64,000 nucleotides of DNA, from assembly GCF_008831285.2 (NCBI RefSeq), contig NC_045138.2:5766001-5830000 (forward strand). The letters run 5' to 3'. Below the pieces are notes generated by a model, which saw only the letters and a program-made list of their open reading frames with translations, was not told the DNA's origin and ran no database searches. Source of the DNA: Nymphaea colorata. Its lineage: Eukaryota. Of the stretch, positions 1,331 through 63,523 are shown in pieces (position 1 is the stretch's first letter; each line of letters starts with the position of its first letter). The position numbers and the translations under genes were made by a program.

Positions 1331-1680
1331 GAGAGATTTTGTCATTTATGCTTCAGTAGGTTGTCATACTGAGCAATCAGCCTGTCTGTGATACGTTGAT
1401 TTGGAGAATTATGAAATGATGTTACAGTTGTGTGAAGTACTTTTTGTATCATGAGCAGCACTCAGCAGTATAATGAACTTTATGTTTGTAATATCTAGAT
1501 TTATTTGTACAGGTTATAGAGATGCTAACTAGCATTTCTTCATTCTATTTTGGTTGTTTTGATATTCTGGCCAAACTTTATAAAGCATGAAAGTTCTTCT
1601 CCTTTCTGTTTTGAGAATTGATACCTTTGTATGACTTTGAATTTGTCCTTTTTATGTGTAATTGTAATTTTACTGTGCAG

Positions 1681-17700: not shown

Positions 17701-20700
17701 ACATGCTCTATTTGGATGGTGACCACTTCTTGGACACTGGTGGATCATGCTGGCTTTCTCATGCACTATCCGTGGTAACTTAGCTATTTCTCATTCGTTG
17801 CAAATTCATTTGAACGTCTTAGTTTTAGTTACATCTTGGGTTAGATCTCCATTATTTTGTTCTGGATGCTCCAAAGTTTTACTTATATAAGAAGCTGTGA
17901 TGCTTACTTTATCTTAAATTTCTAACTTTTTGTGATGCTAACTATATGTCTGGGCCCATTGTTTTCCTATGAGAAAGCTTGCCACAGCTTTCATATTTTT
18001 GAAAGTGGTGGTCACCTGCCAAAAGTTACTGTTTTCAGTTAATCTTGTTTTACTAACAGGCTTCCTTTGTTGTCACACTCCTCAAGGATTTAAAATGTTG
18101 GTTTTCTCTTTATCATATTGGCTCCTCGTAGACAAACATAATGAATCTGCACCAGATTGCTTTCAGGTGGTTTCTTCATGATTTAAGAATTATAGTTTTA
18201 TTTATTTGGATTCTCTCTTCCCTCTTCTTTTGAGACAAAGCTTGCTCCTCACATTTTGGAAAGTGGTGGTTGTCTTGGTACCTGTTTCCTGCAAAAGGTT
18301 AACTGTTTTAACTTTTTAGTTAATATTGTTTTAGCAGGAGGCTTGCTTTGTTTTTGCACTCCGTAAGGATTTGAAATGTTTGTTTGCTCTTTGATCATTA
18401 GTTGGCTTCTCATAGACAAACTTAACGAATCTGCACCAGATTGCTTTCTGATGGTTCCGTTGGCATGATTTAGGAATTATAACTTTTGTTTTGGATTCTC
18501 TCACTCTCTCTCTCTTTTCCTATGATACAAAGGTTGCCATATTTGTCACATTTAGAGGATTGGTAGTCATGTTCATATCTGTTCCCTGCCAAAGGTTAGC
18601 TATTTTCAGCTAATCTTTGTTAATAGTGGGCTTGCATTGCTTTCATACTTCTCAAGGATTTAAAATGCTGGTTTTCACTTTAATGATTGATTGGGTCCTC
18701 ACAGACAAGCATACTGAATCTGCACTATATCGCCTTTTGAGGGTTCCTTTAGTGGTTCTCTCTCTCTCTATGAGAAAAGGCTTGCCATATCTGTCACTTT
18801 TGGAAATGGTGGTCATGCTGATAATCTGTTCCCTGCCAAAGGTCAACTGTTTTCAGTCAATTTATAGCAAGCTTGCTTTCTTTGACTCTTCAAGTATTTA
18901 AAATGTTTGTTTGCTCCTTGATCCTTGATTCACTCCTCATAAACAAGCACAATCTATCCCCATCAGATTGCTGCCGATTGTTCCTTTAGCATGATCTAAA
19001 ATTATAGCTTTTTATTTGGATTCATTTAATTGACCTACTTAAAGTTTACAATGCTGACATAGTATGTCTTTTGTCAACAGGCTGAAGCGATCCTTTGTTC
19101 AGATTGCTTTCATGATGGGAAATTCATTGTTGGCAATTCAAGTATAGATTTTTTGAAGGTGGATGCAGTAAAAGATTCAAATGATCTTGATAGTGACACC
19201 TGGACTGACCATGAGACACTTTTGTTGCTTGAGGCATTAGAAATTCACAATGACAATTGGAATGAAATTGCAGAGCATGTTGGGACAAAATCAAAAGCAC
19301 AGTGTATTCTTCAGTTTGTTCGTCTGCCTATGGAGGATTGTTTTCTCGAAAGTATTGAGTTTCCTACCTCAGTGTTTTCGTCTGATATTGCCAAAGAAGG
19401 AAGCAGAACTAAGTTTCCAATGGCCAATGGAGACTCTTTAGGTACTTGGATGTTTTACTTTTTTCTGATTTAATTTATTAAATGACGAGGTCATCCTTAC
19501 TGAATCCTTCACATTTCATGTCCATGACCATTTCTTGTGTGTGAATGGGGTTTCAGCTTGTCACCACGAGGAGGTCGATTCTGAAGGTCGTCTCCCTTTT
19601 GCAAATTCTGGCAATCCACTTATGTCTGTGGTAGGTCTTTATGTCCCTTCTTGTGTCTGTCATCTATATTTTCTGCCAACAGAATTTATCTTAGACAAAA
19701 ACTTGAACCAGGGTATATATTATTTTATTGTTCTAAGTTGTTTTTTTTTTCTTACTTTTTTTTATAAGAAGGAATTTGTGCAGTAAGAAGCTAACTTTTT
19801 CTTCCTTCAACATCATTGTTTTCCTGAATTAGATCCTTATCTGACAACATCAGTCTATAATGAAGTTAGGCGATTAAGCTATTATCCAACATGGAACAGT
19901 TATAGAAAAAAATTGAAGTAGAGGACTATGCTTCCAAAGTTTTTAATGTCAAAACTTCAAGGATTAAAAATAATAAATGGCAAAATTTAATGAACCTATG
20001 AGTCATTTGACAACACTAGTCTTGCGGAAAGTGAGTTATTGTACATCTGTCTGTAGATTGTGGACATACTTGTGGTTGATTGCATCAACATGGTTTACAT
20101 TGAATTTGGCTAGTCAGAATTTGCATCAGGACCTCCTTAAGTTGCCGTTGTGTATGTAGCAGGTGGGCTACCACTTTGACTGGTCTTTACCAATTCATTG
20201 TTAGCAACATGAATCTCACAGTGGAAAAAGGAAAATAAAATATTCATTTATAGGCTGTGCGATTATCTATTTGTGATGACCAAATATCCTATTTGATAGC
20301 TCAATGTTTTCATGCAACATGTTTGTGCTAGATAAAGGAGGTGAATGTTCAAAACTTCAATGATCTAGATCTTTAACGACAAAAAGGCTTCATAAATATA
20401 TGTTGAAACCTCCCTCTTCTTTCTTCAACAAACACCTGCATTTTAGGACGACAATTCCAAGATGTAAAATAGGAAAATATGTTGCTTAAATTGGTTTTGA
20501 TAAGAGATATGAAGAAAGGAGATAACAACATACAACAGAAACAAAAAGAAGTACTAGATAAATGCATTACAGAGAAATCGAGAACAATAGTTATTCATCT
20601 CAGATATCGTCAGATATGCTGCTTCTTGTTGTTTTTATCCTTTTCATCTTGGGACAGTCCTTTTTCTCTGCATTGAGGCTCTGTATGCAGGAGCTTGATC

Positions 20701-23700
20701 AGTTCCTATTGTCTTGATGGTTGACATGATTGTACTTTCTAGAGGTCCAACCAGAAAATGAACTGTCTGGTCTAACAGATCCCACCCATTGCATAACCAG
20801 CTTCAGTTTACGACCCTAAAAGGATGTGAACCAGAATACAAGGTGGATCCAAGTATGTATTGCAATCAATTTTAGATATGAGACCATTTTGAGGCCATGT
20901 TTTGTTCAGAATTTTGCAATCTACCGTCTTAAATGAGCTTACAGTTTTTGGACCTTGGCTTGCTAGTTAAATATTTTGATGCCAATTGTTGGTAGACATC
21001 AAATCTTGATATCCAAAGTAATTTACCTGTGAGGCTGTGAAGAAGATGAGACAAAGCAGAAAATGGGAATTCTTTCACAATGTAATGGCAGCTTCAAGAT
21101 TGTCAAACATTGCTTATTGAGTGTCTAGACTAGAGCCTATCTTTGGTCAGACATTTGTAAATATATCCACAATCTGCTGCTTAATATGAAAAAACTCCAG
21201 TTCAGTCTTTTTCTCATCTAGCTTTTGCTTCGCACAATGTCGGTCAATTTAAATATGTTTGGCTCGATCGTGGTTGGTAGGATTAAAAGGGATGTTTTAT
21301 GACACTCCGGCTATCAACAATGTCACAAATACCATGAGATTTTTTAAAATCTCACTATATTTACAAGAAAATCAAAACGAAAAATAGGGAAAAAGTTGCG
21401 AGATTTTGAAAATCTTGACAAAATGAAAATCTAGCAATTTTATAGCGATTTTTCCTAGATTTTAACATTTTAATATTTTTCTATAATTTTTAATGTTTTT
21501 TATGATTCTTATATTTTTTTTAATCTTTTCAAAAATTGTCAAGATTTTCCGGAGAACAACTTTGCTGAAAATATCTGGGAAAAATCTCGTGGACTTTTTC
21601 ACGAGAACAATATTTGTGACACTGGAATTAGGCAACGAGGCACATGATGAAATCCACTCTCCAACTTCAGTTAAGAAGTGGCGGATCCTTGATTTTAATG
21701 GTTGCAGCAACCATATGAACCTATATTGAGCCACTATGGTAGATCTGGCCGTAGCTTTATACTTCTTGCTTCTCCATGACGCCAAATCTTTCCTTTCGAG
21801 CACACTCTATTTTGAGATGGATCACCTCTCATCAGGATCTTTCACCCAATTTGCATCACTGTAAACCGCTAGTTCATGCTTCCCTCTTTTGGTCAATCTT
21901 CACCTATAAACCAGACCATCTTCAAGTGCCCTTTTAGATATCAAGGGATATACTCGCTTCCATATGTCTAGTCTGTGGTTTATCCATAAATTGAAAGACT
22001 TGATTAACTAAATACCCAACATTTGGACATGTGAAAGTCAAGTATTGCAATATTCCAACAATGCTACGATGTTCAGTAGAATTGTTATAGAAATCTTCAT
22101 CATGGGTTGCCAACTTGTGATTAGAATGCTGGTAGTAGCTAAGGGTTTGCAATCCTTCATGATTGGTCTACTCATAATGCTAAGGAGGTATTTGTGCTAA
22201 GTTTTGTGTTGTACGATCTTGTTCTACCTTTACTCCATGGAATGGCACAGTTCTCCAAGGCCTTTCATCTTAAATTGCTTGCCCAACAACACCTTTACCT
22301 CGCTGATGGGATTATTGAACTGCCTGTAATAACAATGTCATCCACAATCTACATATAAGAACAAGGTAATGATACTTGATTGTTTCTAAATGAACAGGGA
22401 GTGGTCTAGATGTCCATGATTCTGAAGTTCAGAGGAGAAATTGTGAGACAATGACCATGAAGCTTGCATCAGCCCCATTATTGCTCTCTTTGATCTGTAT
22501 TCATATTCCCTTGAATCTCTTCATCTGTACCCATGCAGTTGTTCCATGTAAACTCTCTCCTTCAAGTCTATGTAAACAAGCGTTCTTGACGTCGAGTTGC
22601 CTAAGGGACCATTTGCATTAAACAACAATGGTTAGAAACTTAGAATAATCTGAACGGTCTGCCATCTTACAATTGGACTGTATGTCTTATGATTCATAAC
22701 AGTCTTGTCCAACATGCTGGGTGAAATCCTTGGCAATAAGTCGTGCTTTGTATTTCTCAATATTCCCATCAGGTTTATGTTTGACTTTGTATGCCCACTT
22801 GCATTCCACAACATTCTTATTGGGTCAAGGCACAACCTCTGAAGTGTCACATTCATGAAGAGTTTCGATCTCATCATTTGTGGCTTCAACCCATTTTGTG
22901 GCATGGACAGTTTGATGAAAAGGATAGGCTTGTCCTCCTTGTTTAAACTTGCTAAAAACACTTGCAACCCCATGGTGTTCAATTAGATGATGAGCTTCTA
23001 TAGGACATTGGAGATTTGATACTTGAGATGGAGAAGAGAGAATGGTTGTTCCTTCCCTCGACGAATGATCTACATGATGTGGAAGAATCTCATGGAGGGA
23101 GGAGTTTTTCAACATGAAGGTGTTGTTTCTGTTGCTGCAAGCAATTTGGAGGTCAACGACCATCAGGAGTAGCAAAAAGTTTGTGCTAGGCCATGGATAA
23201 TACATCTCAATAGCACATGGTGATGCTTGATAATTAATTGTCAATCTAGTCTTTTGTTGTCTTGCGTTTTTTATCTTTGATTGGCAATGCCATTAGTACT
23301 ATGATTTGTCAATGTTTTCCTGCGGTATGATTGGATTTGGTACTTCATTAGTGGATGGAAGTGCATGTTGCATCACAGAGTTATTTTCCCTGAATTGTAG
23401 CTGATTAGCTGTATCTTTATTTTGATCAGATATATTTTATGTCTTCATCTAACTGATAAAATTTTCTAGGTTTCCTTCTTGGCCACTGCAATGGGACCAC
23501 GAGTTGCAGCCGCTTGTGCACATTCAGCACTTGCATTATTATCTAGAGTAGGGAGCAATTCCATATCTGCCGGTAATCTGTCACAGTTGGAGGGTGCTTC
23601 TCAAGGTGATAGGTGGGATGCAGTTTCTTTTCTGGCAAACTTTTAAAGTTTTGTAATAGCTTTAGTTTTCTAGTGGCATTACATGCTGATGCTGTATGCT

Positions 23701-25141
23701 TATTAAACTTTATATCTTTGTCAGGGCTTTTGGTTGTCTTTCCTTCTGCTATGTTTTTCTTTTTGATGTTTTTTTTGATTGCTATACTTTTCTGTTTCTT
23801 TGTACTATATTTGGACATAAACTGAATGATTGAAATATTGAGATTTTTTTTTCTATGAAGAGGAAATTCAGAAAATATGCATCAAGATGGCATGCAGGGA
23901 AGCTTAGGACATCATAAAGGTTGGTCAATGTTAATAGTTTTTCAATTGATTCTGCTAATTGTACTTAATCTTAGTCTATGGGTGCAGAGGAATCTCAAAC
24001 TGAGACCAAAGAATCTGTGGAGCGGTTGTCACCTGAAATAGTGAAAGCTGCTGCCAGAGCTGGACTATCTGCTGCAGCAATGAAAGCAAAACTGTTTGCT
24101 GATCACGAAGAACGTGATATCCAGCGAATGAGTGCGACTATTATCAACCATCAGGTTTGCTGCCTATGATTCTTTAAAATGGTTTGCATATTCTATGTTT
24201 TATGTTTCAGAAAAATCAAAGATGATATTTATTCTGCTTTTGTTGGATCCGTCAAAAGCACCTACGTGGCTACGTCCTTTCCATAAATTGAGAAATAAAT
24301 GAATCATGTACTGTTGTTTTCTCTCTAGCTATGCACCAAAATTATATGGACTCTGCATCCTGATGAGGTTTGATGATGTGCATTCACCATTGTAAGGGAA
24401 CTTGTTAATATGGATCCTGCAATGGATGAGAGAGAGAGCTTCCTGTTTTGAATTCCATATGGCTTTTTGGTTATCTTTAACAATGAGAGGATCTTTAACA
24501 ATGAGAGGAAAAAGAGAGTAAAGATTACTTGCGGCAGCAATTGAAGAGTGGTCCTTGATGAGTCTCTACATATGATGTTAGAGAGATAAAAAAGAGCAGA
24601 GAATTTAGGAGGTGAAGGATGAGTTACAAAATTATCTAAAAAATTTATTTATGCTAAGCCAAAAGGTGAAGTTAACTCCAGTTTCCACTGCCACTTAATA
24701 ACTCTCCCTTTCATTGAGGAACTTAGGACAAAGGACATCAGTTGTTGTCAACGTGCTCACAGCTGCAACATAATCAGTAACTCATGGGTTCCTTTTCTTT
24801 AAAGTGCTCCCAGAAGAGTCTAAGATATATTATGTACACAAGTTGGAGGTTTGTATATCTTTTCTTGTACAAAGTGACAACGATATGAATATGTTCAATA
24901 CACATGAAATATTAGATCATTTTGTTAAAAGTGCTAAGTGGAGCTTAGGCAATAAGTAGAACTTAAAGCTTGCGGGTGGTGTTGGCTGAATTAGGCACTT
25001 CAAGTTCTGCAAGAAAAGAAAAACGTAGAATCTAATGAAATGCAACAATAATGCATTATATCAAGTCACGCCTATAAAGTATAAACACATAAAAATTGTA
25101 AAAGATAACATGGAATAACAAATACATACAGAATAACCTTA

Positions 25142-25172
<31 letters not shown>

Positions 25173-27270
25173 CATAGAAATAGTTAGATGAATCTGGAAT
25201 CTAGGCAGGGACTAGGTGCCTTGGGGTTGCCATCCCCTCAAAGACAAACCAATAAAGTGCACGATGGCACAAACACATTAAACATTTCATAACATGATAA
25301 TAAACATAATTGAAAGTTTGAAAGATCAAATTTAATGATATCGAACAACTCAAGTTTACAGGTTATATACAAAAAAAAAAAGGAAGCTTAAAAGTAAATA
25401 TCAATGTTTCCAAAGCGAAATCTCTAATTTTGATTTCTAGAAGTAAAATCCTCAAAACCTAGTTACTAATCTACTTAGAAAAAAAAAGGAACATAAACCC
25501 TTGATATAATCGTAGTTCATGTTAACATTGCTTGCTGTAAAATTCTCTTTTACTACAATTCTAGTGCACAAGAAAAGTGTTAAGAAGATGATGCACATGT
25601 TTCCAAGCTCAAACTTAAATATTCTAAATATAATAGTATATGAATTATGACAATAAGTGCACATGCATATGATATTCTCTAATGCGACATCACTTGCAAG
25701 TTGCAACAGAGAAAACATGAAAAGCTGAAAAAGAAAAAGAAAATGAAAAAAATATCTCAAAAAACTAAAGAAAAAGAAATAACAAAAATTTAGGTTGTCA
25801 ATGAAAAGAGTCTAGGCTATTTGCTTAGGACAGCTTGGGCATCCAAGTCAGTTTGAAAGTCACATAGAAACAGCTAACTAGGGAATTAGCCGAGCATGGG
25901 AGTCTCGGCGCAAGCCCACCAGATTATTGACAAACAAGATGGCCAACGTGTTATCCTTTGCAAGACCATTGGTTGAGTGACCTCAAGTGCCAATTCGTTG
26001 AAAGCAGCTGGCAGCTGAAGTTCTTTGTATTCTTAAAAGTATCATCTCTTTGTTCATAACAGCTAAGCCACACGGACATTGCAAAGTGACTGCTGCTCCC
26101 ATGTCAACACGACTTGGGTGCGGGTGCGGCTCGGATTCGCACCCAACACAAGTCAACAAGAGTCGGGTGCGGCTGACCACACCCGACCATTTTCTTCCAT
26201 TTTGGACACGCACCCGACTCACGTTTGACTCAAGTCGTACCACGTCAAGCCTATTTTCGTCCTTTTTGATATTTTTTTCTTTTAAAGATTTTAACGTTAA
26301 AAAAAAGGCTAAACATTTTTTTTCTATTTCTGTGTTCTGTCCTGGTTTTGTTGTTTTGTTGTTTTTTGTTTACTTGTTTAATGTTTGTACTTTGTAAGCA
26401 TAATGCTTAATATGTTACATTCATATACACAATACATTATAACTTATAAGTATGTAATCTATGTCACAAGGAGGAGTACCCGTATGGTACCGGTACGACA
26501 CGGGTACCGGTACGGGTACGGGGTTGGGTACACCTTTTTTGTGGGTCAACGCACCGGAGGTCATTTTTGACCTTTTTTAGGTACAGTCAACTTTGACCGA
26601 GTCCAAATGTGTCTTTTTTATATTTTAACGATTTTTAGATTTTAAAGTTTTAAACGATTATAACGTTAAAAGAACTCCAACCTTTATCACATCATATTCG
26701 TATTTTGGTATGCCTTGTCCAACAATGACCTATTCTTCTTTGGATGCATGCCTTCCCACGTTATATACTGAATCAATTATTCACTTATTCTGCATAGACT
26801 GCATATTCATTATTCTGTATTGCATGTTCTATACTGATTGAGAAGAAATCCATTTGATATTGGTGTGAATCGTGTGATATATGTCCAATTACAATGTTAT
26901 CTGCATGACTGCATCAGATATTGTCTTGTACTAATTAGGAACAAAGCTGATGTATTTTGAATGTATTTTGAATGTTAATTATGAGACTGAGGAGAATGAG
27001 AATGTATTTATGAATATGACAATATGTTATTCTGATTGTGTAATTTTTGATATAGATATGTGCATATATGTTATTTTTCTGCATTTTTTGACATATATAT
27101 GTGTGTGTGTACGGCCGTACTCCCGTACCCAAGTTTTTTGAAAATGGTCTGTACCCGTACCAGTATCGGCACCCGTACCCGTACCCATGTGACATAGTAT
27201 GTAATATATAATTTATCCGTAAAGTGTAGAGTGTATAGACTATAGTGTATACTCTAAATTTCTTAATTCT

Positions 27271-27352
<82 letters not shown>

Positions 27353-27706
27353 AAAAAACGTGTTATTTTTGAAAAAAACGCGAAAAAAAAGAAATTCCTA
27401 TTAAAACTTAAAAAACACGTTTTTTGAAAAAAACGTAAAAAATGTGTTTTAATGCACTTTTAACGCGTTTTTTCATTTTTTTATGGCAAACAGTTTTTTT
27501 TTTTCATTTTTCATTTTCTATTTGTTGCAAATCTACTTATCTTTTGATGTTTGTGGTATTATTTTCTCACTTATTTTATTTTTAACCATTTTTAGTTTTT
27601 TTATTTTTATTTTTAAAATACCATTTTTTTCCGTATTTTTCAAACCTACCATATTATACCGAGAAAAATCTCACCGTTTAAAACTCTGAGACGACATTTG
27701 TGATTA

Positions 27707-27739
<33 letters not shown>

Positions 27740-29930
27740 GATTGTAATAATAAATTAATAATAACAAATAAATATTCTCACTGCACCTAATTTTTTGGGA
27801 ATGTCCCGTTCCGACACCCGCACCTGCACCCCGCATCTATGTGACGTAGCATAATAGGCACTTGCTTGGGAAATTCTGTTTTCTCTTGTTTTAAAGATCA
27901 GACTACTCTTTGCTGATATGCAAATCCAGAAGTAGATCTTATATCATGAAGAGTTGCAGGTCCAACCGATCTGCATATAGATTCGTGCATGAAAGAGATC
28001 AAGTGTGGAAAACCTTACCTCGAGCTGGCATGTCAGTCCACGTGTTTAAATGCCTTGGGTCCACGTCATTAAGGTCTTTGATGTACTTGTGAATGTGCAC
28101 TGAATGTGTTGGTTGCATCATAGAGCTAGAGCACATTATTTCTTTGACTGGGTTTCAACTGGATACAAATTCATTAAATTTTTGGATTTTTGTTAGCCGC
28201 TAAATTTTCACCTGTTAATGTGAAGTACCATAGTAGGTATTGGGAACATAAATTGACCGGATTGTAGTTCTATAAATATTCTTGACTATGTCACAGGGTG
28301 CTTCTAAATGGCGACCGCACCCGTGCACTGAACCGGGCCAAAATTGACCATTTTAAATGTGCACATAAATAAACTATCTCTAACACAAAAATTTTATATG
28401 TAAATATAGATAGATAAGGCTAATAAGCAGTTAAATAACTATGTAACAAATGATTTATGTACATAGATATACTATATACATCTTCACTGCACCCACACCT
28501 AAACTTTTTTTGAAAATTGCCGCACCAGCACCTGCACCCCCCATATGATGTGGATTCTTGCTCTCTTTCACAAAAGTAGAGGGTTGATCTGTAGTAGATT
28601 CTGGGTATGTGATGTTGAAGAACATGCATAGTGCAGACTCAATGATTTGACTTTTTTTCTTCAGATTCTCTGGAGAATGTCCTATCATTCCCTTAAACAA
28701 TTCTAGGGAACCCAAACAGTTTTTGTATTTGGTGAGATTATATAAAGGTGGATGTGAATGCAGAAAATAATTCTTTGAATTGTCCTTTGTTTTCCATTGC
28801 TTTTTTTTTTAAAAGATGGGATGTTCCAAAACCTTCCAAGTGGAGACTTGGTCCGCAAGCTTCCGACCTTGAGATCTCCAAATGGAGTTAAAATGTATAC
28901 ATCTATATGATCCCATTCTGATCCCACTCTGAACTTGTCGAAGGAAACAGAGAATCTGCTTCCTGTGTCATTGGTAGCTGCTCTTCAACATCCACTTTTG
29001 TAGTCATTTTATGTTTAGTTTCTATTTCCCTTGTGAGCAGTACTTTATAGATCTTTTCTTTGAAATGCAGGCATTCCGTGATGTCTAAATCTTTATATTC
29101 TTTCTCTAGAAGGAGTTGGGACACTTGCAGTTCCTTTTTGCCTAGTCTTCAGTCTAACAACATTAAATACATATCCAGTATGCATATTGTTGCATTTCTA
29201 TTGTTTTGTATTGGCATTTGGCGTGCAAAAGTCATATAGGGCCATCTAGAGCTGGGAAGCCATATGTCATATAAGCAATCATCAATAAATCTTTAACAGA
29301 GTACCTCTTGATGCTGTACTTTCACTTACTGTTGTCAAGGACAGAAACATTTTGGTAGATCATCGGTGTGAGAGAAAACTTAAAAAGCAAATATTGTGCT
29401 TCTTGCAAACTATCCATGGGGTTTTACCCTGTGCAAGATTAGGTGGTTTTGTTCTATTGTTAACTGATTGAGGATTAATGCAGCTGAAACGAATTGAGCT
29501 CAAGCTGAAGCAGATTGGTGAAATAGAGACTCTGCTGTTGAAGGAATGTGATCAGGTTGAGAGGGCTAGACAGAGAATTGCAGCTGACCGTGCACGCCTT
29601 CTATCAAGTCGATTTGCTGGACCTGTATCTTCCCCTCTTCCCACAGTGGGAGCAGCAGCAGCAGTCACAACCAGTAATCGGCCAGTGATGCCAGCTTCAG
29701 CACCACAACCAACAGTTCCTGCTTTTAATCAGCAAGTGAATCATCCAGCAATGTCTTTCATGCCTCGGCAGCCAATGTTTGCTTTTGGTCCTCGTGTTCC
29801 ACTCTCTGCTTTGCATCCACCACCACCTGTGCCAACTGGGCCTGTCATGGTTAATTCCCCATCTCCAAATCCTAGCGTTTCTCATTCCATGTTGAGACCT
29901 GTTTCTGGTACTAACACAAATGTAAATTAA
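14740..29930 (+). CDS. SWI3C: SWI/SNF chromatin-remodelling complex subunit SWI3C (SWIRM, ZZ-like Cys region, SANT/Myb, SWIRM-associated, Pro-rich tail), ~780 aa
   Basis: GT-AG exons 14740-14770, 15438-15956, 16191-16732, 19081-19441, 19557-19630, 23470-23612, 23861-23919, 23988-24154, 29484-29930 total 2343 nt, in frame. Motifs: 'FLENISHGQLQVLS', SWIRM 'DWFS..KIHRLERQVVP..RIVRFLDQWGIINY', SANT 'WTDHETLLLLEALEIHNDNWNEIAEHVGTKSKAQCIL', 'AAMKAKLFADHEERDIQR', 'QLKRIELKLKQ'. Confidence 0.93.
17968..19025. repeat. Four-copy degenerate tandem repeat (~250-290 bp unit) in SWI3C intron 3
   Basis: Units begin at ~17971, 18232, 18525 and 18772, sharing AAAGCTTGC..GTGGTGGT..CCTGCCAAAGGTT..AAGGATTTAAAATG..AGACAAAC..GAATCTGCACCAGATTGC..TTTGGATTC. 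Confidence 0.85.
21318..21624. mobile_element. AT-rich MITE with CA(A/G)TGTCACAAATA TIRs
   Basis: CAATGTCACAAATA / TATTTGTGACACTG (13/14 match); related copies at 51052-51498 and ~27350-27707. Confidence 0.7.
21625..23240 (-). mobile_element. Old degenerate Ty1/copia RT-RNase H fragment, antisense in SWI3C intron 5
   Basis: Frame-broken motifs KWVEATNDEIETL, TYSPIVRWQTVQIILS, RSIVGILQYLTFTCPNVGYLVNQV, YSDANW, ASWRSKK..ARST. No LTRs seen. Confidence 0.85.
26099..27849. mobile_element. Outer hAT-type MITE of the same TIR family (host of nested insertions)
   Basis: Ends CCATGTCAACA and TGTGACGTAG with GGGTGC/GCACCC subterminal repeats; no TSD found. Confidence 0.55.
26459..27197. mobile_element. 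hAT-type MITE (CTATGTCACA TIR), nested in a related element in SWI3C intron 8
   Basis: TIR CTATGTCACA/TGTGACATAG, perfect 8-bp TSD TATGTAAT, subterminal GGGTAC/GTACCC repeats. Confidence 0.9.
28286..28553. mobile_element. hAT-type MITE (CTATGTCACA family)
   Basis: Left TIR CTATGTCACA, degenerate right TIR; 8-bp TSD ATTCTTGA/ATTCTTGC; GCACC repeats. Confidence 0.75.
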
Positions 29931-34991: not shown

Positions 34992-35381
34992 CTGAATGGT
35001 GACTGCCTTTTTGTAGACATACGTTGACATCAAATCAGAGCCATCCGATCTGGATCAGAGGGCGGGCTTAGCTTCTCCTCCTCCTCTCTCTCTTCACTCC
35101 TCTCCCTCTCTTTCTCATCTCTCACATGTTATGAAACTCCCTTCCTCTACCCAGCATGGAGGAGCCCCGGGTCGTCAGTGGTGGAACCGATATGGCTTAA
35201 GAGGCGCTGGGTGGCTCTCGCTGAAGTTGCTGGTGGAGCCCGTGCCCTTTAGTGGCGCTGATTCCGTCCGGCTAGCCAGCCAACGATAGCAGGAGGAGCC
35301 GTTTGGTGGCTCCCATGAGAGACAGAAAGAGGGATTAGGAAGAGAGACAGAGGGAGAGGTAAGGAGGGAGAAAGAGAAAAG

Positions 35382-35821
35382 TGTTGGGATTTCTTCCCAT
35401 AGCGCATATACAAAACCAAATGTATATACTCTAAGCAGGATCATGCTCATGCTAAATCATTGAAATAAACGAAACCTTAAACTGAAGCGGAAGCGTACCT
35501 GAATCCATCTGATCTTTCAGGGTACGTGCGGTGCGCGTGAGGTCTCTCTCAGATGGGGAAGAGAAAACCCTAGAAACCAAAAGCAACTGTTCGCACGACC
35601 CCAGGGACCACTACCATTATATAATGAGGACAATTACAGATTCAACCCATCAAAGAGTCCGTAATTGCGTATTGGTATCTATACATTTCAAAATTACCCC
35701 ATACCATCTAAAATGACGTAATATCCCAAAATGCAATCACTTAAGCGGATATTTACGTTAAGACAGCCATAATGTCTGAAATTCCTCATAGACATATGCC
35801 GGCCCACCAAATGATCTTACA
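35382..35821 (-). repeat. 3' LTR (440 bp)
   Basis: Copy of the 5' LTR with about 10 transitions (counted by eye) and a 28-bp deletion; adjacent to the PPT. Confidence 0.95.
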
Positions 35822-35833
35822 ATCTCCCACTTG
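35822..35833 (-). promoter_or_regulatory. Polypurine tract
   Basis: AAGTGGGAGAT on the - strand immediately before the 3' LTR. Confidence 0.8.
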
Positions 35834-36215
35834 GGCCAAATATGTCTTAATACATTCAGACATTACATAAAACCTTAGGAGCTCATAATTGCTATCTTAT
35901 AAACGTCATTTTCACCAATCTCGTCCATGACCATATCAACACAGAACCAAAGCGGCTTTCGCTATAATAAAAATTAGCTAAACCTTCAATGATCACAAAT
36001 GTTAACATAATCAATGACATAGATCTGATATGGATGTATAGCATGAGAATTACATGTAATGTGATTACAACATGTCTATTCTCAACTGGTCCAACTTTAA
36101 AACCTTATGGAGATCAAAACATAAACACAGAATGGAACCAAAGAACTTTAAACTTTATTCTGCAGAAAACTGAATATGTGTCCATACATTAGAGTAAACA
36201 AAATACAAACTCCCA

Positions 36216-38283
36216 CTAAACCAGCACATCATCTAAGGATAACACCCCCATATGAACAACATGTTCATGAAAGACCTTAGGTGTTAAACCCTTGGTAAGC
36301 GGATCCGCAATCATAGAGTTTGTCCCAATATGCTCTAAAGACACCTGACCATTCTGTATCCCCTTTTTAACAGTCCAAAAACTTAATGTCGATGTGCTTC
36401 GACTTTGACAAACTGTGGCTGTTATAAGAGTACATAACTGCTGAATTATTGTCACACAATAACCTTAGTGGTCTTTCTACACCATTCATAATGCGCAGCC
36501 CCGTGACAAAATTCCGCAACCACAAAGCATGATTGGATGCCTCGTAACATGCTATGAATTATGCTGCCATAGTTGAAGTAGCTACAAGTGTCTGTTTGAC
36601 ACTTTTCCATGATATAGCTCCTCCAGCCAACAGAAATACATAGCCTGAAATAGACTTGCGACTGTCTTGGCATCCAGCAAAGTCAGAATCTGAATACCCA
36701 ATGATCTCCAACTGGTCTGATTTCTTGTATGTGAACATAAAATCTTTTGTTCTTTGTAAGTATCTCAATACTCTTTTGGCTGTTTTCCAATGATCCATAC
36801 CTGGATTACTTAAGTATCTGCCTAACATTCCCACGATAAACGCAATATCCGGACGAGTACAAACCTGAGCATACATAAGGCTTCCCACAACAGACGAATA
36901 GGGAATCCTTTCTATTTCCTTAGATTCGATTTCACTTTTAGGGCACTGTTTGAGACTAAACTTGTCTCCTTTAGTAACTGGAGTATCTCTTGGTTTACAA
37001 TCCTTCATGCCATATCGCTGAAGCACCTTATCAATGTAGGTCTTTTGTGATAATCCAAGAATACCCCGAGAACGATCTCGAAATATTTGGATTCCTAATA
37101 CAAAAGATGCATAACCAAGATCCTTCATGTCAAACTTTGATGACAAAAATTTCTTAGTTTCATGTAATGTGCCCACATCATTACTCGCCAGCAATATATC
37201 ATCGACATATAGAACCAGAAAGATAAATTTACCCCTACTGAACTTATGGTACACACATTCATCAACCATATTGGTCTCAAAGCCAAATGAAACTATAGCT
37301 TGATGAAATTTGTAATACCATTGACGGGAAGCTTGCTTTAGCCCATAGATAGATTTCTTAAGTTTGCAAACCATTTTCTTTGCATTTCCTGAAGCAAAGT
37401 TTTCTAGTTGCACCATATATATTGTTTCATCAATGTCTCCATTTAGAAACGCTGTCTTAACATCCATCTGATGCAGCTCTAAGTCAAAATGAGCCACAAG
37501 TGCCATTATGGTCCTGAAAGAGTCTTTCGACGAAACTGGAGAGAAAGTCTCTGTATAATCAATGCCTTCCTTTTGAGTAAAGCCCTTTGCAACAAGACGT
37601 GCCTTATACATTTCGATGTTTCCTAATGAATCCCTCTTGGTTTTAAATATCCATTTACAACCAATGGGTTTCACACCTTCAGGCAAGGGAACAACATCCC
37701 ATACGTCATTGTCCATCATGGACTTTATTTCCTCACTCATGGCATCTATCCACTTATGAGATTTAGAACTCTTTATTGCTTGCTGGAAGTTAATAGGATC
37801 ATCTTCCATTAAGCCCATATCAACATCATGTTCTTGGAGATCGACAAAATCATTTGAAATTGTATTTCTCCTCTCTCTAATGAATCTCCTCAGTGGCACT
37901 TCTACTTGATTTTCTTGAGGTTGTTGAGTTTGTTCTTCAGTATGGAGATCGACATCATTGCCTTCTTCTGAATATGTTGATGAAACAATTGCAGGAATGA
38001 ATACCTGACTGTTGCTTACAACACCTGTATGAGTGGACTCAGGTCCATCTTCAAAGGCAATGTTTCTAACCTGATCACCTCCCCCAAACTCAATATCCTC
38101 AAAGAAATGGGCATTTCCCGTTTCAAAGAAAGACTTACTGGATGGATTATAAAACTTATAACCCCTTGACCTTTCAGAATACCCAACAAAGTAACAGCTA
38201 ACCGTCTTAGAGTCCAGTTTTCTTTCGCTTGGCCTATATGGCTTTGCTTCAACTGGACATCCCCAAATATGAAAATATCTCAT
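36216..38283 (-). pseudogene. Copia integrase C-terminus, reverse transcriptase and RNase H (nonsense codon and frameshift in RNase H)
   Basis: FHIWGC..CYFVGYSE; RT KARLVAKGFTQKEGIDY, QMDVKTAFLNG, LYVDDILL; RH GYSDSDFAG..ISWKS. TAA at 36559-36561 falls where a Glu codon is expected, and a frameshift near 36378 precedes MIADPLTKGL. Confidence 0.92.
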
Positions 38284-38437
38284 ACTAGGCGTTTTGCCTG
38301 TCCCAAATATGAAAATGTCTCATACTCAGGTCCATTTTCTTTCGCCCGCCCGCCTGCGTGCTGTGTTCGGTTTTTGGACCGGGTCGGGTCCTGTCGGACC
38401 CGACTCGTATCCATGCGGTTTAATTTTAAAGAAACGG

Positions 38438-39944
38438 CTTTAATCATTTTGCCTAATTGATTCTCAACTTCGGCTTTAAATGACTTGAAAACGTCTAAGG
38501 ATTGAGACTTCTCATGAATCAAATACAGGTAACCATAACGAGAATAATCGTCTATGAACATGATAAAATACTGTTGTCCATTCCAACAAGCCGTAGGGAA
38601 TGGACCACAAACATCCGTATGAATCAGTTCTAAGACGTCTGAAGCTCTACTTGCACCTGTTTTCTTAATGTTTATTCGTTTTCCCTTTATACATTCTATG
38701 CAAACATTAAAGTCTGCAAAATCAAGGGACCCAAGAATTCCATTTGACATAAGCCTTCTTATTCTCTTTTCAGAGATATGTCCTAAGCGCCTATGCCATA
38801 ACATAGCAAAATTCTCATTGGCTAATTGTCCTTTAGTACCACTGGATGTAACATGCAAGGTCTCATGATATGAAGCAACTGTATCAAGCAAATAGAGGTT
38901 ATCGCTACTAGATAAAGAACCAGTGACAATCAAATTTGAATGCAGAAACAACTTGAATTTATTTCCTCCAAAAGAACAATAGTAACCAAATTTGTCCAAT
39001 GAGGAAATAGAAACTAGATTCCGTCTAAAAGACGGCACCACATAAGTTTCTGTCAAATTCAAATAACAACCAGTCTTTAACAATAACCGAAAATCTGCTA
39101 TGGCTTCAACTTTTGCCTTCTTGCCATCGCCCACATAGATGAATCTTTCAGCATCATTTGACGTTCGACAATTTAGGCAGTCTTGCATAGAGACACTTAT
39201 GTGAGTAATAGCACCTGAATCTACCCACCAAGTGTTTCCGGGTACTGAAGTTAAATTAACCTCAGAACAAAACAAAGTGAGAAGTGTATCATTCTTTTCA
39301 CGCCATGCGTGAAACTTAGTACAATCCTTCTTTATATGACCTTTACCCTTACAAAAGAAGCAGCCTAAAAGGCCTTCCTTATGCTTCTTCTGTTTCTTAA
39401 CGGATGATTGGTCAATGGCAACTTCTATAACTGTCTTTCTTTTCTTACTTATAAGAATCGAATCATTTATCTCAATAATAGTACTCAAATTTGCAAATAT
39501 CATGGAAACAGAACTCACTGTATAAAGAACAAACCAAAATACCAAACATGCTCACAATCAATACATGTACAAAGATGAAATAACAAATATAAATGAATTT
39601 AAACATAATGGCCCAAAACCCATCACAAGGTACCGGTGCAACGCTAATATCCAATCTTTGGATTGAAATATTAACTGCAAGTGGCATTCTTGGTCAACAA
39701 TGAATATAGATAATTAACCCTGTCAAACAACGAACCTATCTTTGGATTGACTCGCTATTCACATGGAAAGCTGAAAAATTATCACACATTCATTGCCCTG
39801 TATACTTAAACCTGACCAAACAACAATCCTCCTTTGGGCTGATCATTGTTCGCATGGATCAAGTATACTATCATCTAATATTTAAAACAAGCAAATTCGT
39901 ACAACAGAGGTCACTTTGGCGACATAAAATACAAACTTACTCAT
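38438..39944 (-). pseudogene. Copia gag (internally deleted), protease and N-terminal integrase; putative intron 39518-39940
   Basis: Zinc knuckle CFFCKGKGHIKKDC, protease WWVDSGAITH, GAG-pre-integrase LWHRRLGHIS, integrase LELIHTDVCGPF..FIDDYSRYGY. The integrase breaks off at KMIKAV (38437). ATGA|GTAAGT donor and TTTATACAG acceptor give an in-frame start. Confidence 0.85.
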
Positions 39945-40099
39945 TTCAAACAACAGACATAGCTAAAGATCAAATTCATAATCCAAACATTCATCTAAAG
40001 CACATACACAATTTGCCCAATATTGAATCCAAAACCAAATGATTCAATGATATGGGCCCAAAAGAGACCAAAATTTTATAAACCGATACCATAATTGTG

Positions 40100-40600
40100 T
40101 TTAAGTGGGTCAAGAACCACTGAATCGGCCTTAAAGTGGCCCTTATCGTTCTTAAACCGCAACTAGAACACCCACATGCCCCTAAATAGAGCTGAACCGG
40201 TCAAAAATTGGACAAACCGGTCAAAAAATAGACCGTATCGGTTCTAAAACCCACTGAACTGGTTAAAAATGGCTAAAAAACGGTTCCAGAACTCAATGAA
40301 CCGGTCTGAAAATGCCCGAATCGGTTCGAAAATCAACTTAATCAGTTCTGAAATGCTAGAATCGGTTCTAAAACTGAATGAACCGGTTCTGAAAAGCCCT
40401 GAATCTGTCCGAATCGGTTCTCAAATGAATGAACCGGTCCCAAAATGGTTCGAATCGGATCTGAAAGGTCCGAACCGGTCCCTAGAAGGTCCGAACCGGT
40501 CTGAATCAGATTGAATCGGTTTTGAATCGGATTGAACCGGTCTGAAATCGAATGAACCGGTTCGAGTCTTTTCCAAAACCGGTTTAAAAAATGAACCGTT
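40100..40600. repeat. Degenerate GAACCGGT/GAATCGGT minisatellite in the copia 5' leader
   Basis: Many copies of the gaa(c/t)cgg(t) motif at roughly 10-22 bp spacing. Confidence 0.8.
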
Positions 40601-40865
40601 TCTTTAAAATTAAACCGCATGGATACGAGTCGGGTCCGACAGGACCCGACCCGGTCCAAAAACCGAACACAGCACGCAGGCGAGCGGGCGGAAGAAAATG
40701 GACCTGAGTATGAGACATTTTCATATTTGGGATAGGCAAAACGCCTAGTATGAGACATTTTCATATTTGGGGATGTCCAGTTGGAGCAAAGCCATATAGA
40801 CCAAGCAAAAGAAAACTGGACTCTAAGACGGTTAGCTGTTACTTTGTTGGGTATTCTGAAAGGTC

Positions 40866-41461
40866 AAGGGGTTATAAGTTTTATAATCCATCCAGTAAGT
40901 CTTTCTTTGAAACGGGAAATGCCCATTTCTTTGAGGATATTGAGTTTGGGGGAGGTGATCAGGTTAGAAACATTGCCTTTGAAGAGGGACCTGAGTCCAC
41001 TCATACAGTTGTTGTAAGCAACAGGTATTCATTCCTGCAATTGTTTCATCAACATATTCAGAAGAAGGCAATGATGTCGATCTCCATACTGAAGAACAAA
41101 CTCAACAACCTCAAGAAAATCAAGTAGAAGTGCCACTGAGGAGATCCATTAGAGAGAGGGACTCCTCTCTCTAATGGATCTCCTCAGTGGCACTTCTACT
41201 TGATTTTCTTGAGGTTGTTGAGTTTGTTCTTCAGTATGGAGATCGACATCATTGCCTTCTTCTGAATATGTTGATGAAACAATTGCAAGAATGAATACCT
41301 GACTGTTGCTTACAACACCTGTATGAGTGGACTCAGGTCCCTCTTCAAAGACAATGTTTCTAACCTGATCACCTCCCCCAAACTCAATATCCTCAAAGAA
41401 ATGGGCATTTCCCGTTTCAAAGAAACACTTATTGGATAAATTATAAAACTTATAACCCCTT
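40866..41461. repeat. ~295-bp-arm inverted repeat (4-nt loop) of integrase sequence inside the copia 5' leader
   Basis: 40866-41159 is the reverse complement of 41164-41461, with loop GACT; 41162-41461 is also a direct copy of 37868-38167. Confidence 0.95.
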
Positions 41462-41957
41462 TTCTTACCGATTTTGTGTGTTGCAGCGGCGACGAAGCCA
41501 CCGGCGGGCCGCCGGAGACCGTGGGTGGGTGCCTGAGGGTCGCACGGCCCTGTCCGGCGACAGGTAAGTCGCCGGCAGGCCTTTGACCGATGTCGCCCTC
41601 CCTGCCGTCGCCCTTTCCCTACCTCTTTTCTTCAATGGCTGCGACGGACGAAAAGGTGTTCACCTGCAGGCCACCCAACAGCGTGGGTGGCCGCTGGTGG
41701 GTCGCGCTAGGACGGCTGGAAGCCGTCCGTCGCCTTCCGGCGACAGTCGCCCGCCTAAAACCTGCCGTCCCTTACGCCATACCCTCTGCATCCTTAGGCG
41801 GCTGCAGCGGAAGCCCGACGACTTCCGTTGCTTCCCACGCCAATTTTGTTTTTTTTTTTTTTGAAAAACTTGCAGCCGAAGAACCAAATGAGGAACATCC
41901 GAACGGGAAACAACGCACAAAATCATCCAAAAATCAATGATTTAACGAAGAACATAG

Positions 41958-41969
41958 GCTCTGATACCA
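41958..41969 (-). promoter_or_regulatory. Primer binding site complementary to initiator tRNA-Met
   Basis: TGGTATCAGAGC on the - strand, 2 nt after the 5' LTR. Confidence 0.93.
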
Positions 41970-41971
41970 AA

Positions 41972-42439
41972 TGTTGGGATTTCTCCCCATAGCGCATATA
42001 CAAAACCAAACGTATATACCCTAAACAGGATCATGCTCATGCTAAATCATTGAAATAAACGAAACCTTAAACTGAAGCAGAAGCGTACCTGAATCCATCT
42101 GATCTGGTGCACAGGAAGATCGCAGCAGGGTCTTCCAGGGTACGTGCGGTACGCGTGAAGTCTCTCTCAGATGGGGAAGAGAAAACCCTAGAAACCAAAA
42201 GCAACTGTTCGCACGACCCCAGGGACCACTACCATTATATAATGAGGACAATTACGGATTCAACCCATCAAAGAGTCCGTAATTGCGTACTGGTATCTAT
42301 ACATTTCAAAATTACCCCATACCATCTAAAATGACGTAATATCCCAAAATGCAATCACTTAAGCGGATATTTACGTTAAGACAGCCATAATGTCTGAAAT
42401 TCCTCATAGACATATGCCGGCCCACCAAATGATCTTACA
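41972..42439 (-). repeat. 5' LTR (468 bp)
   Basis: TGTTGGGAT...GATCTTACA on the + strand; direct repeat of 35382-35821; adjacent to the PBS. Confidence 0.95.
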
Positions 42440-42524
42440 AAAAGATATGGGACACCTGATTTTAAATGGATGGTATAGATTTGATGCCCTTGAATGTATG
42501 CTCAAAGTGACAGTCAGCATTCAG

Positions 42525-45554: not shown

Positions 45555-48500
45555 GATCTTGGTTACTTTTTAGTAAGTTGTTATGGTTTGAATTCAGTAG
45601 GAACCTCTCCTTGCTTGGGATCTATGATGAGAGAAAAATTGTAAAGGGCATTTAAAACATATAATCTGTTAGAAATGTGGCTCTTTTTGAGTGAGCAAGA
45701 GGCTAACAACCCACTGCCCATGAAAGAGAACGGAGGCTCCCCACAATTCCCACTTGCCCCTAGGGTCCTAGACTACTTTGATGTTTTGTATAGGTCCAAT
45801 ATATGTCAACTAGCATAACACTTTCACATATAAATCATGAGCATAAGGAGTAGAACTACTGTTGAACTCACAAAAATCAAACTGAGGACGTGCTGCTTAA
45901 TGTTAGAAATGTGTTGCTTAAAGTTATGCTGGCTGGTATGGGGTTTGAAATTAAATTTAAGAAAAATTTATTGTTTTATTAAATATTTAAAAAATAGAAA
46001 AAGTGGAAAATAGATCAGCATGGGCCGATGCATATCTGCTAGCCAGCGAACTGATACTGCACCAATACCGATATTCATGTTCAACACTGGTTCTTAGTGC
46101 AAGATTTATCTGAGTTTTTTCCCCAATATATTAACAGTCAAGCAATTACTTTTGTAGATCATCTTTGTTTACTTAGTTCTTTAGGTACCAAGTGGCTGCA
46201 TTATAGAGTTATATTGGTTTTTAAACAGCCACAGAACGTTATAGCGTTGGCTTAACCAGTCAAAAGTTGCTGGGAGATAGGCTCGGACCTTTGTTGCTAA
46301 AAAAACATCTATCCATAATAAAAAAAATATTTATATATTAGAATTAGCGACAGTTTATAGTGCAGCAACAGTTTAAATTTTTTCCGGTCCGGCAACTATC
46401 GAGCATCTACAACAATGAATTATACTCTTTTGCAGAAGGTTCTATCATTTCCCACTTGACTGATAGAGTATCATAAAGATCATGCTAATATTGTATGCCA
46501 AAACTTTTTATTTAGTAAAAAGAAAAGGTCTTGGGAGAAGCACAAGCCAAATTTTTTGCACTGTGCCTAGGCTTTTAGTAGGTCAACTTATTCCAGGGCC
46601 TCCCATTCAGGCCTCTTGTCAAGGCACCCATCAGAAGAGAACAATCAGAAGACTATATATAAAAAGAGCAAGTATTAGGTCAGTTCTCTTCTCAACCTTG
46701 ATTCACAAAGACTTCTAGAGCATCCCATCTCTAGAATCCACCAAAGAACCTTTTGAAGCTGAACTCATGGATACCAAGAGCCATTAGAAAGGCAATTGCC
46801 AACTCTCTCTCCCTCTCTCCCTTGCTCACACACACACACACACACTCTCTCTCTATATAAGAAAGAGGAAAAATGTAACCTTAGTAGTAGGGAGACTTTG
46901 TAGGTATCTTTGTTGCTTTATTGCTCAACAATGAAAAGAATAATGCCTTTAGTGTTATACAACCAAAAGAAGGGCTTCAGGCCAAGGAATCAATGAGTGG
47001 ATCTAGGGATAACTGGCCTTCAGAATAGAAAGGAAAGATTCTCCACAGGACAAGAAGAAACTAAATGGATGGTAGAGCAACAAAGTTGGCCCTAAGTACA
47101 CCACCTCCTTTGAATGTGGTAGTCCATGAAAAAATAATGGATACAATACTGAGACCAGACATAGATACCATCCACTCAATATGCTAAATTGATATTGTAT
47201 GGTAGCAAATGGGCACCTCAGGATGTGGGAATTTTGATGCCACCTCTTTTGCATGAGGCCAGAATTGCATCTGGAAATATAGATACCACAATGTGCAGTG
47301 TATGAACATATACCAACCAGTGAATATATGCTGATAGTCAAAAAGTAGAAAAATATTAATTGCATTTCTACCAAAGGTGGTTTTTGAAATTGAATTGAAC
47401 AAGCTGTTGGGTTGTGGAATTGGCTGACACAGAGATTCAGCCGAATAGGCTGTGAATCATAAAAGACATTTTACAAGTTTTTACTATTTTGTCAATGATG
47501 CTCAAGGGGGTTGATCGAACGGGATTGAATAGGGGCTGGCAGGCACCTATTCTCTACTTTGATTCCTGAGGGCTAACTGTTTGTGCTAAAAATAAGGGAC
47601 CATCGACATGTAAGTTGAAGTGTGGTAGGGGCAGAATCTCGAGGCACCGATGCAGGCCTTCATTGGGTGAGGGCTTTGACCTTTTTCAGGTGCTGGGTCA
47701 AACCCCCCTCACCCGAAAGTACTATTTTGTCAATGATAACTACGAAGAAAAATTAAACTCAAAAAGCATCTCGAGGGAAGAAATATCCTTGAAATATGAA
47801 AGTGACTACACATAAATAATTCTAAATGAGAAATTAAAGTGTGAATGCCAACAGATGCCAATCTTTGATGATGCTTGCTCATAGATGATAGGGAACTCAA
47901 ATTCATTATATAGACTTCTCTAGGTCAGCCTGCGGAATTTTTTCAAATGGATGCTCAGAAATTTCGTGTGGCTGATGAAAGAAAGAACAGTGATCGGGCT
48001 TTGAAAATCTCATGAAATCGGATTTTGTTTGACAATTATGTCACATGAGGTTCAGTGATCAGGAAACCACTCATGTGACATAATTGCCAAAGCTTTTAAT
48101 TTTATATGGATGTGACAATTATGTCAAACAGGGTAAACTTTTCTACAAACAACTATATGGATGTGATCTCCACATACGTGAGATGATTCAACATAAACTA
48201 AGGGCACCTTATACTGTATTTACTAAGCTAAAAGAGTTTAGATTGTGCATCCAAAATGCTTAAGAAAGCAAAATTATGCATAATTAGAACATATTTCCAT
48301 ATTAATTTTATTTTTCAAAAACCAAGGCTAAGGCATTTAGCTAGTCTTTACTGCACTCAAATGTACATGATAGAATCTACAAACACCGTCACACACAAAC
48401 ACACACAAAAACTTGTGTATGTGTGTGTATCTGTATTTAAAATGGAGAAATGACCCAGAAAATTAAAAACCAGACAACTGATCTTTGTCTTCCTTTTTGC

Positions 48501-63025: not shown

Positions 63026-63523
63026 ATGGGAGAGGGCAAGGGTGCGCCGAAGCAGTGCTTCGCCATTGATGTGGCTCAGCAGGACCCTTCCAAATTCTTC
63101 GATGACGATGGACGTCCCAAGAGGACAGGTGAGATAGAGAGCAACAGGGAAAAAAATTTGAGTTAGAATTGCTCTTGATAATGGAAGGGGCTGTGTCTCT
63201 AATATGGAGTCTTCTTGTTTTCTTCTTCTGTTCTGCGTTTTGCCAGGAAACATGTGGACTGCCAGCGCTCACATCATCACGGCCGTGATTGGGTCTGGAG
63301 TTCTGTCTCTGGCTTGGGCCATTGCCCAACTGGGATGGATAGCAGGCCCTGCTGTAATGATCCTCTTCGCCTTTGTTATCTACTATACTTCCACGCTTCT
63401 TTCAGACTGTTACAGGTCTGGAGACCCTGTTAATGGCAAGAGAAATTACACCTACACGGATGCTGTTAAGGCCAACTTAGGTATGTAGCATTTTTCTGCT
63501 GCAGCTCTGAAACTCAGAGAGCG

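Follow-up and report, generated by a model that had tools for sequence, protein, structure and literature searches.

A defective copia insertion in Nymphaea colorata with a self-copied integrase fold-back predicted to form a 295-bp RNA hairpin

The transcript of Muk is described as forming a hairpin of MuDR's own sequence (PMC8224964; PMC10827316); this hairpin and its small RNAs overlap the terminal repeat, which is the MuDR promoter (PMC8224964), and transcription is driven by a nearby promoter (bioRxiv 2020.01.07.897926). The Ac killer alleles p1-ww-id1 and id4 are reported as natural inverted duplications of partial element sequence, id4 being apparently self-promoted (bioRxiv 2020.01.07.897926). 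According to the accounts of these loci, what is duplicated in Muk and in both Ac killers is the 5' terminal region with the promoter (PMC8224964; bioRxiv 2020.01.07.897926). Four features are said to characterize killer loci: an inverted duplication, its transcription into dsRNA and siRNAs, silencing that is heritable and acts in trans, and mobility of the siRNAs (bioRxiv 2020.01.07.897926). The endoIR loci, of which hundreds are reported in Arabidopsis, are long, mostly transposon-derived fold-backs, polymorphic between accessions (PMC10827316). For the copia element EVD (COPIA93), body siRNAs are reported to lower the RNA level but not to stop transposition, while 24-nt siRNAs of the LTR mark the switch to TGS; moreover, a hairpin was proposed for an antisense nested EVD insertion, as a candidate silencing trigger (PMC11624286). 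Truncated EVD copies with two LTRs are described as new insertions in Arabidopsis, two of them having clear TSDs, and that study leaves their mechanism open (PMC10462705). The literature searched, which excludes most subscription journals, contained no LTR retrotransposon with a demonstrated killer, and the antisense nested EVD insertion is the nearest case in it.

The locus described here lies in a 64,000-nt stretch of Nymphaea colorata DNA, called the window below. Like Muk, it is a rearranged transposon copy whose transcript would be a hairpin of the element's own sequence. However, Muk derives from a DNA transposon, contains a promoter-bearing terminal repeat, and has been shown to produce siRNAs and heritable trans-silencing, whereas the water-lily locus is an LTR retrotransposon with pol-coding arms, has its own LTR as the sole evident promoter and is known from sequence alone. 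With the Ac killers it shares the natural inverted duplication of partial element sequence, the only feature of killer loci shown here; the Ac alleles differ in being products of alternative transposition, in carrying 1.8-3.9 kb repeats of 5' terminal sequence and in their demonstrated function (bioRxiv 2020.01.07.897926). The long near-perfect fold-back in genomic DNA is a feature of endoIR loci; in contrast to these, the water-lily fold-back is confined to a single LTR element, whose LTRs allow it to be dated. The nested EVD insertion is similar in being a copia-derived potential hairpin, and the truncated EVD copies are similar in being internally deleted with two LTRs. However, the EVD hairpin, which results from a second insertion, would form between LTRs separated by 1.9-2.6 kb, whereas here the fold-back is internal to one element and has a 4-nt loop.

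The host element is a copia element on the minus strand (35382-42439, 7,058 bp), 5.5 kb downstream of the SWI3C gene. Its features, including those of the rearrangement discussed below, are as follows.

35377-35381, no strand: left TSD, AAAAG, matching the 5-mer at 42440-42444
35382-35821, minus: 3' LTR, 440 bp, TG...CA, without 28 bp that the 5' LTR has
35822-35832, minus: purine-rich tract adjoining the 3' LTR, a putative PPT by its position
36225-37869, minus: linker end, RT (RVT_2) and RNase H
37870-38303, minus: native integrase C-terminus (SH3-like domain) and linker
38302-38326, minus: slip duplication, 25 nt, of 38262-38286, at the integrase deletion junction J4
38327-38437, plus: 111-bp leader piece, inverted, replacing the integrase core, with a 5-nt microhomology at 38433-38437 (J3)
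38433-39551, minus: gag start joined to the gag end, with zinc knuckle, protease region, pre-integrase and the first half of rve
40184-40562, no strand: degenerate 10/21/41-bp tandem repeats, AACCGG-rich, in the long 5' leader
40596-40706, minus: leader piece at its native position and in its native orientation, from which the inverted insert in pol was copied
40707-40865, plus: left-arm extension, an inverted copy of the slip duplication and pol 38168-38301
40866-41159, plus: left arm, antisense integrase C-terminus in the element RNA, with a private 4-nt deletion
41160-41163, no strand: loop, the fold-back tip (J2)
41164-41461, minus: right arm, sense integrase C-terminus, joining the leader by a 6-nt microhomology at 41456-41461 (J1)
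41462-41956, minus: first part of the native leader, GC-rich; family contigs differ at 1 site over 113 and 143 nt
41957-41969, minus: PBS
41972-42439, minus: 5' LTR, 468 bp, with a TATA-like box at 42235-42241
42440-42444, no strand: right TSD, AAAAG

The TG...CA LTR pair, the 5-bp TSD, the PBS, the PPT and the position of integrase upstream of an RVT_2-type RT are those of Ty1/copia elements. An autonomous copia element requires complete gag, integrase core and RNase H, and none of the three is complete here. In the capsid region, ~190-220 codons are unmatched and a gag-start-like stretch abuts the gag end; in comparison with five full-length relatives, the first 203-247 residues are unmatched. 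The integrase core lacks ~100 codons relative to the same five (P0004 residues 561-660). The RNase H region is broken by an in-frame stop (36559-36561) and a frame change near 36380. With such lesions the element is dead on its own. Weak gag-like matches in the leader at 40591-40650 (E 0.01-0.2) were taken as chance. Relatives in the RT region reach up to 75% identity (5,707 matches among the 7,970 candidates scored). The PBS is presumably of the initiator tRNA-Met type. The lineage is probably Ikeros (REXdb) by size, TSD and PBS type: the element shares with Ikeros the GAG-PROT-INT-RT-RH order, the 5-bp TSD and the tRNA-Met-type PBS, and is 7.06 kb long against the Ikeros mean of 6.9 kb (PMC6317226, supplement 3), these traits being common to several lineages and TAR being merely disfavoured as mostly self-priming.

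Elsewhere in the window, the SWI3C gene (14740-29927, plus strand) has nine coding exons; apart from the exon edges, its translation agrees with the Nymphaea colorata protein P0123, which places the window in this water lily or a very close relative. Its introns contain an old frameshifted copia RT fragment (21669-22920, minus strand; 23-36% identity to the relatives used) and four diverged repeat copies with a spacing of 238-289 bp (18050-18983). A 620-codon open frame at 1622-3484 (plus strand) ends in an Arg/Glu/Ala-rich repeat and gave only a sub-threshold Casc1_N match in Pfam; it is presumably a long exon of an auxilin-like J-domain protein. The start of an amino-acid transporter gene (Aa_trans) is found at 63162-63485 (plus strand).

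By global alignment the arms of the fold-back occupy 40866-41159 (294 nt) and 41164-41461 (298 nt) and are separated by a 4-nt loop (41160-41163, GACT on the plus strand). The alignment has 287 identical columns out of 298, the differences being seven substitutions and one 4-nt indel, and the longest perfect runs are 124 and 74 bp. A repeat search recovered the same structure as two pairs, 40866-41024/41303-41461 (96%) and 41022-41159/41164-41301 (99%, 4 nt apart), in agreement with the arms, GACT loop, few mismatches and single 4-nt indel of the original prediction. The right arm starts 495 bp from the PBS, where about 500 bp had been proposed. The only other inverted repeat in the 64-kb window (E<1e-5, microsatellites masked) is an imperfect palindrome of 64 bp at 48028-48091, possibly a small MITE remnant. 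The arms consist of integrase C-terminal and linker sequence (SH3_retrovirus, PF25597), the catalytic core not included, and align to residues ~704-814 of the relative P0004 (tblastn). The minus-strand RNA, which is the element sense, is predicted to form a single stem of -563.6 kcal/mol, compared with -185.7 +/- 6.8 kcal/mol for 20 shuffles (z -55.7). This prediction, together with the intact 5' LTR and PBS upstream, bears out the suggestion that LTR-driven RNA would fold into long dsRNA. In the full-length RNA the predicted alternatives are the local duplex (-536 kcal/mol) and a pairing across 2,158 nt (-1,079 kcal/mol); the latter comprises 568 bp with a loop of 2,158 nt and includes 111 nt of the 5' leader. 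Once the local stem is formed, a further 270-bp long-range pair stays free (-525 kcal/mol). The stem would still be a near-perfect Dicer substrate if the RNA were made, because G-U pairs persist in the sense RNA at four of the seven substituted arm sites.

The fold-back is real, but it is one part of a larger self-copying rearrangement in a broken copia element. Integrase sequence was originally held to have been copied into the leader; the palindrome does lie between the 5' LTR/PBS and gag, but instead of a simple copy it belongs to a rearrangement with four junctions. An inverted copy of 37870-38437, 568 bp long (97.5%), occupies 40596-41159 and has the left arm as its first half; the right arm repeats 37868-38167 in direct orientation (97.3%), the integrase C-terminus being present in three copies (native, right arm, and left arm). 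Pol 37868-38167 is the source of both hairpin arms, and 37870-38303 also supplied the arm extension. The composite junction J4, made of the slip duplication and the leader piece, occurs twice in opposite orientation; therefore, one copy was templated on the other. Read along the RNA, the 5' LTR and leader are followed by J1, the sense integrase C-terminus (300 nt) and the tip, then by the antisense copy with 160 nt more, J4, the native leader piece, the tandem repeats and the gag remnant; next come protease, first-half integrase, J3, the inverted 111-bp leader piece and J4 again, and finally the native integrase C-terminus, RT, RNase H and the 3' LTR. The native ends are given by public family contigs (integrase to 38303, in X6, and from 38433/38436; leader to 41456, in X1 and X3), and this fixes the microhomologies at 2 nt for J4, 5 nt for J3 and 6 nt for J1, with some loss of native leader between 40707 and 41455. 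As these contigs run into other sequence at the same positions, unrearranged family relatives exist and could supply proteins. All the rearranged DNA is element-derived, the LTR ends and the TSD are intact, and nothing outside the element is touched.

The LTRs differ by 10 transitions and no transversions in 439 aligned sites and by one 28-bp indel (K2P 0.023); the exclusive occurrence of transitions fits a long-methylated copy. The CG/CHG/CHH context of substitutions was tabulated with C/G taken as the older letter, and gave counts too low to reveal any additional methylation of the arms. If the grass rate of 1.3e-8 per site per year is assumed, the LTRs would be ~0.9 million years old, although this may not be the water-lily rate. 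Divergence between the arms is 2.4% versus 2.3% between the LTRs, i.e., 1.1% per branch for copies and LTRs alike. Over the 296 bp common to the three integrase copies, private substitutions number two in the native copy, six in the right arm and one, plus the indel, in the left arm, a 6:2:1 split that is not significant (P 0.13). The alleles private to the right arm are at 41288, 41351, 41426, 41432, 41438 and 41439, and the 4-nt deletion of the left arm is near 41022. The extension pair has seven differences in 270 bp: the leader part of the inverted pair differs at 2 of 111 bp and the integrase part at 5 of 159 bp. In total the copies carry 16 substitutions in 1,424 branch-sites and the LTRs 10 in 878, which gives an age ratio of 0.99 (95% CI 0.42-2.43, Fisher P 1.0) and a likelihood ratio of 2.6 for formation at insertion versus a uniform later time. 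By these counts the rearrangement is likely about as old as the insertion. Since the leader part is not older than the integrase part, there is no sign of an earlier step, and the divergence gives no support to an older parent with the integrase deletion only.

In the public sequence runs, one 109-nt DNA contig of run X1 (1 of the 98 aligned) crosses J4, matches window 40624-40732 at all 109 letters and carries both alleles private to the leader-side copy, with 26 letters on the integrase side, below the 31-letter bridging rule; X1 may derive from the same sample as the window. The depth of this contig is 13.2, like that of other single contigs, while neighbouring family bins sum to hundreds. 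None of the contigs listed spans J1, the tip or J3. The DNA contigs of X3, X6 and X8 do not cover 38310-38335, and those of X1 and X3 do not cover the flank at 42451-42520; holes in a contig set carry no proof. Loose ends of family contigs are seen at one LTR end in X1 (11) and X3 (23) and at the other in X3 (18), and the family is multi-copy. Of 2,061 aligned X1 contigs, 421 are at least 99% alike to the LTR, leader and arm. In many family contigs several arm and extension positions depart from the window copy. Some family contigs of X1 and X3 skip 56 bp of the integrase-RT linker (window 41268-41325) and represent linker-length variants. The stretch 41135-42520 is partly present in 20 of the 24 runs listed, half or more of it in none; none of the holders listed is an RNA run, and none of the 24 is labelled a small-RNA library. 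In the RNA runs X21 and X22 of organism B, each sampled to ~6%, 51 of 11,567,375 and 9 of 12,092,265 reads, respectively, match the LTR and leader and none falls on 41135-41416; neither run is known to carry the insertion, so these counts have no bearing on its transcription. A 23-nt leader motif had no matches in metagenome contigs.

The reading that we consider probable is that a defective copia insertion acquired its three copies of the integrase C-terminus through a chain of template switches near the time of insertion, that its RNA would form a 295-bp hairpin, and that the copy, instead of being a killer of its family, is likely silent and in neutral decay. Along the cDNA (plus strand of the window), synthesis would have left pol at 38303, slipped 40 nt back and recopied 25 nt, then copied 111 nt of leader backwards and re-entered pol at 38433 via a 5-nt microhomology, with the loss of the integrase core. 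The strand would then have passed gag into the native leader piece, snapped back on the inverted leader copy made earlier in itself, recopied 450 nt of integrase, doubled back at the 4-nt tip and re-entered the leader via a 6-nt microhomology. We infer this order of template switches; the polymerase would have been a reverse transcriptase rather than a repair polymerase acting soon after insertion, integration would have relied on integrase and Gag of intact relatives, and the locus is presumably methylated today. During cDNA synthesis RNase H cleavage leaves the new strand single-stranded, which fits the snap-back path, and the dating mildly favours such an origin. The truncated EVD copies offer a precedent for damaged copia copies that integrate with both LTRs (PMC10462705). 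However, the dating interval is wide (0.42-2.43), the LTRs may mutate faster than internal DNA, and the first inverted leader insert needs a template missing from a single first-round cDNA, i.e., a second co-packaged genome or an earlier step.

That insert is easier to obtain by microhomology-mediated template switching in break repair or replication restart after insertion (MMBIR/FoSTeS or polymerase-theta-type filler synthesis), as chromosomal DNA offers every template on both strands within 3 kb. Such repair typically leaves a slip duplication, 2-6-nt microhomologies and a near-zero-loop fold-back like those seen here, and the lower bound of the age ratio (0.42) leaves time for it; on the other hand, the point estimate of 0.99, the likelihood ratio of 2.6 and the untouched DNA outside the element count against it. 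Reverse transcription is accordingly ranked first, as the probable origin, and chromosomal repair second, as a possible but doubtful one. The rearranged element, or a parent with the integrase deletion only, could also represent a non-autonomous subfamily copied to several sites: it retains intact LTRs, PBS and PPT, its loss of gag and integrase resembles that of non-autonomous derivatives, and the X1 contig with J4 could come from a sibling. However, this contig carries the private alleles of the window's leader-side copy (109/109), its depth of 13.2 against hundreds for the family bins is a hint in the same direction, although depth is no copy number, and with a long stem close to its 5' end the RNA should be poorly packaged and reverse-transcribed, so that a subfamily is very unlikely. 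Finally, near-zero-loop palindromes are a known artefact class, and the absence of contigs spanning the tip and J1 among those listed would suit a fold-back chimera of long reads or amplification. Yet each copy has its own substitutions, mostly of the C-to-T type and at the LTR rate, and arms with private substitutions are no assembly echo, since an artefact would give identical arms; likewise, the X1 contig that crosses J4 agrees with the leader-side copy, private alleles included, within the limits of its 26 letters and possible origin from the window's own sample. An assembly or library artefact is thus highly improbable.

A working or once-working killer, in which the 5' LTR drives the hairpin and Dicer siRNAs silence intact family copies in trans, is unlikely. 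The intact 5' LTR with its TATA-like box and PBS lies 495 bp upstream, the stem contains perfect runs of 124 and 74 bp, the second, 568-bp pairing (2,158-nt loop) brings in 111 nt of 5' leader, close family copies (the 421 X1 contigs) offer targets, and one Ac killer allele is apparently self-promoted (bioRxiv 2020.01.07.897926). However, the short-loop arms are pol coding sequence only and contain neither LTR sequence nor the 5' terminal, promoter-bearing region, the long-range pair adding leader but no LTR, and for EVD body siRNAs are reported as not preventing transposition and as dispensable for TGS (PMC11624286). If the locus is transcribed, Dicer products would be directed against the pol body, trimming full-length RNA and methylating coding DNA more than shutting LTR promoters. 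Moreover, many family contigs differ at several arm and extension positions, and a hairpin transcribed from its own LTR would presumably bring about its own methylation and shutdown. The arms have drifted at the LTR rate, and the arm alignment contains no compensatory change; the pairing is thus not visibly under selection. Read-through from SWI3C is an unlikely promoter source, as 11 kb separate the arms from the end of its last coding exon (29927). It is decidedly unlikely, too, that the locus was a killer at birth, with reverse transcriptase snapping back on its own cDNA, the copy being integrated by relatives, and siRNAs of the own-LTR hairpin silencing the parent family. The locus is probably an inert TE-derived inverted repeat.

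Hairpins from rearranged copies are a proposed answer to the question of what first triggers the silencing of an active LTR retrotransposon (PMC11624286). If a killer at birth did arise in this way, LTR bursts would have an intrinsic brake that depends on copy number, and the locus would be, within the literature searched, the first killer for a class I element. As it stands, it is another inverted repeat of TE origin, from a non-model plant; it is dated, fully mapped and has arm-private alleles, by which small-RNA reads could be assigned to it. Its main value is that it cleanly documents template switching within a copia element.
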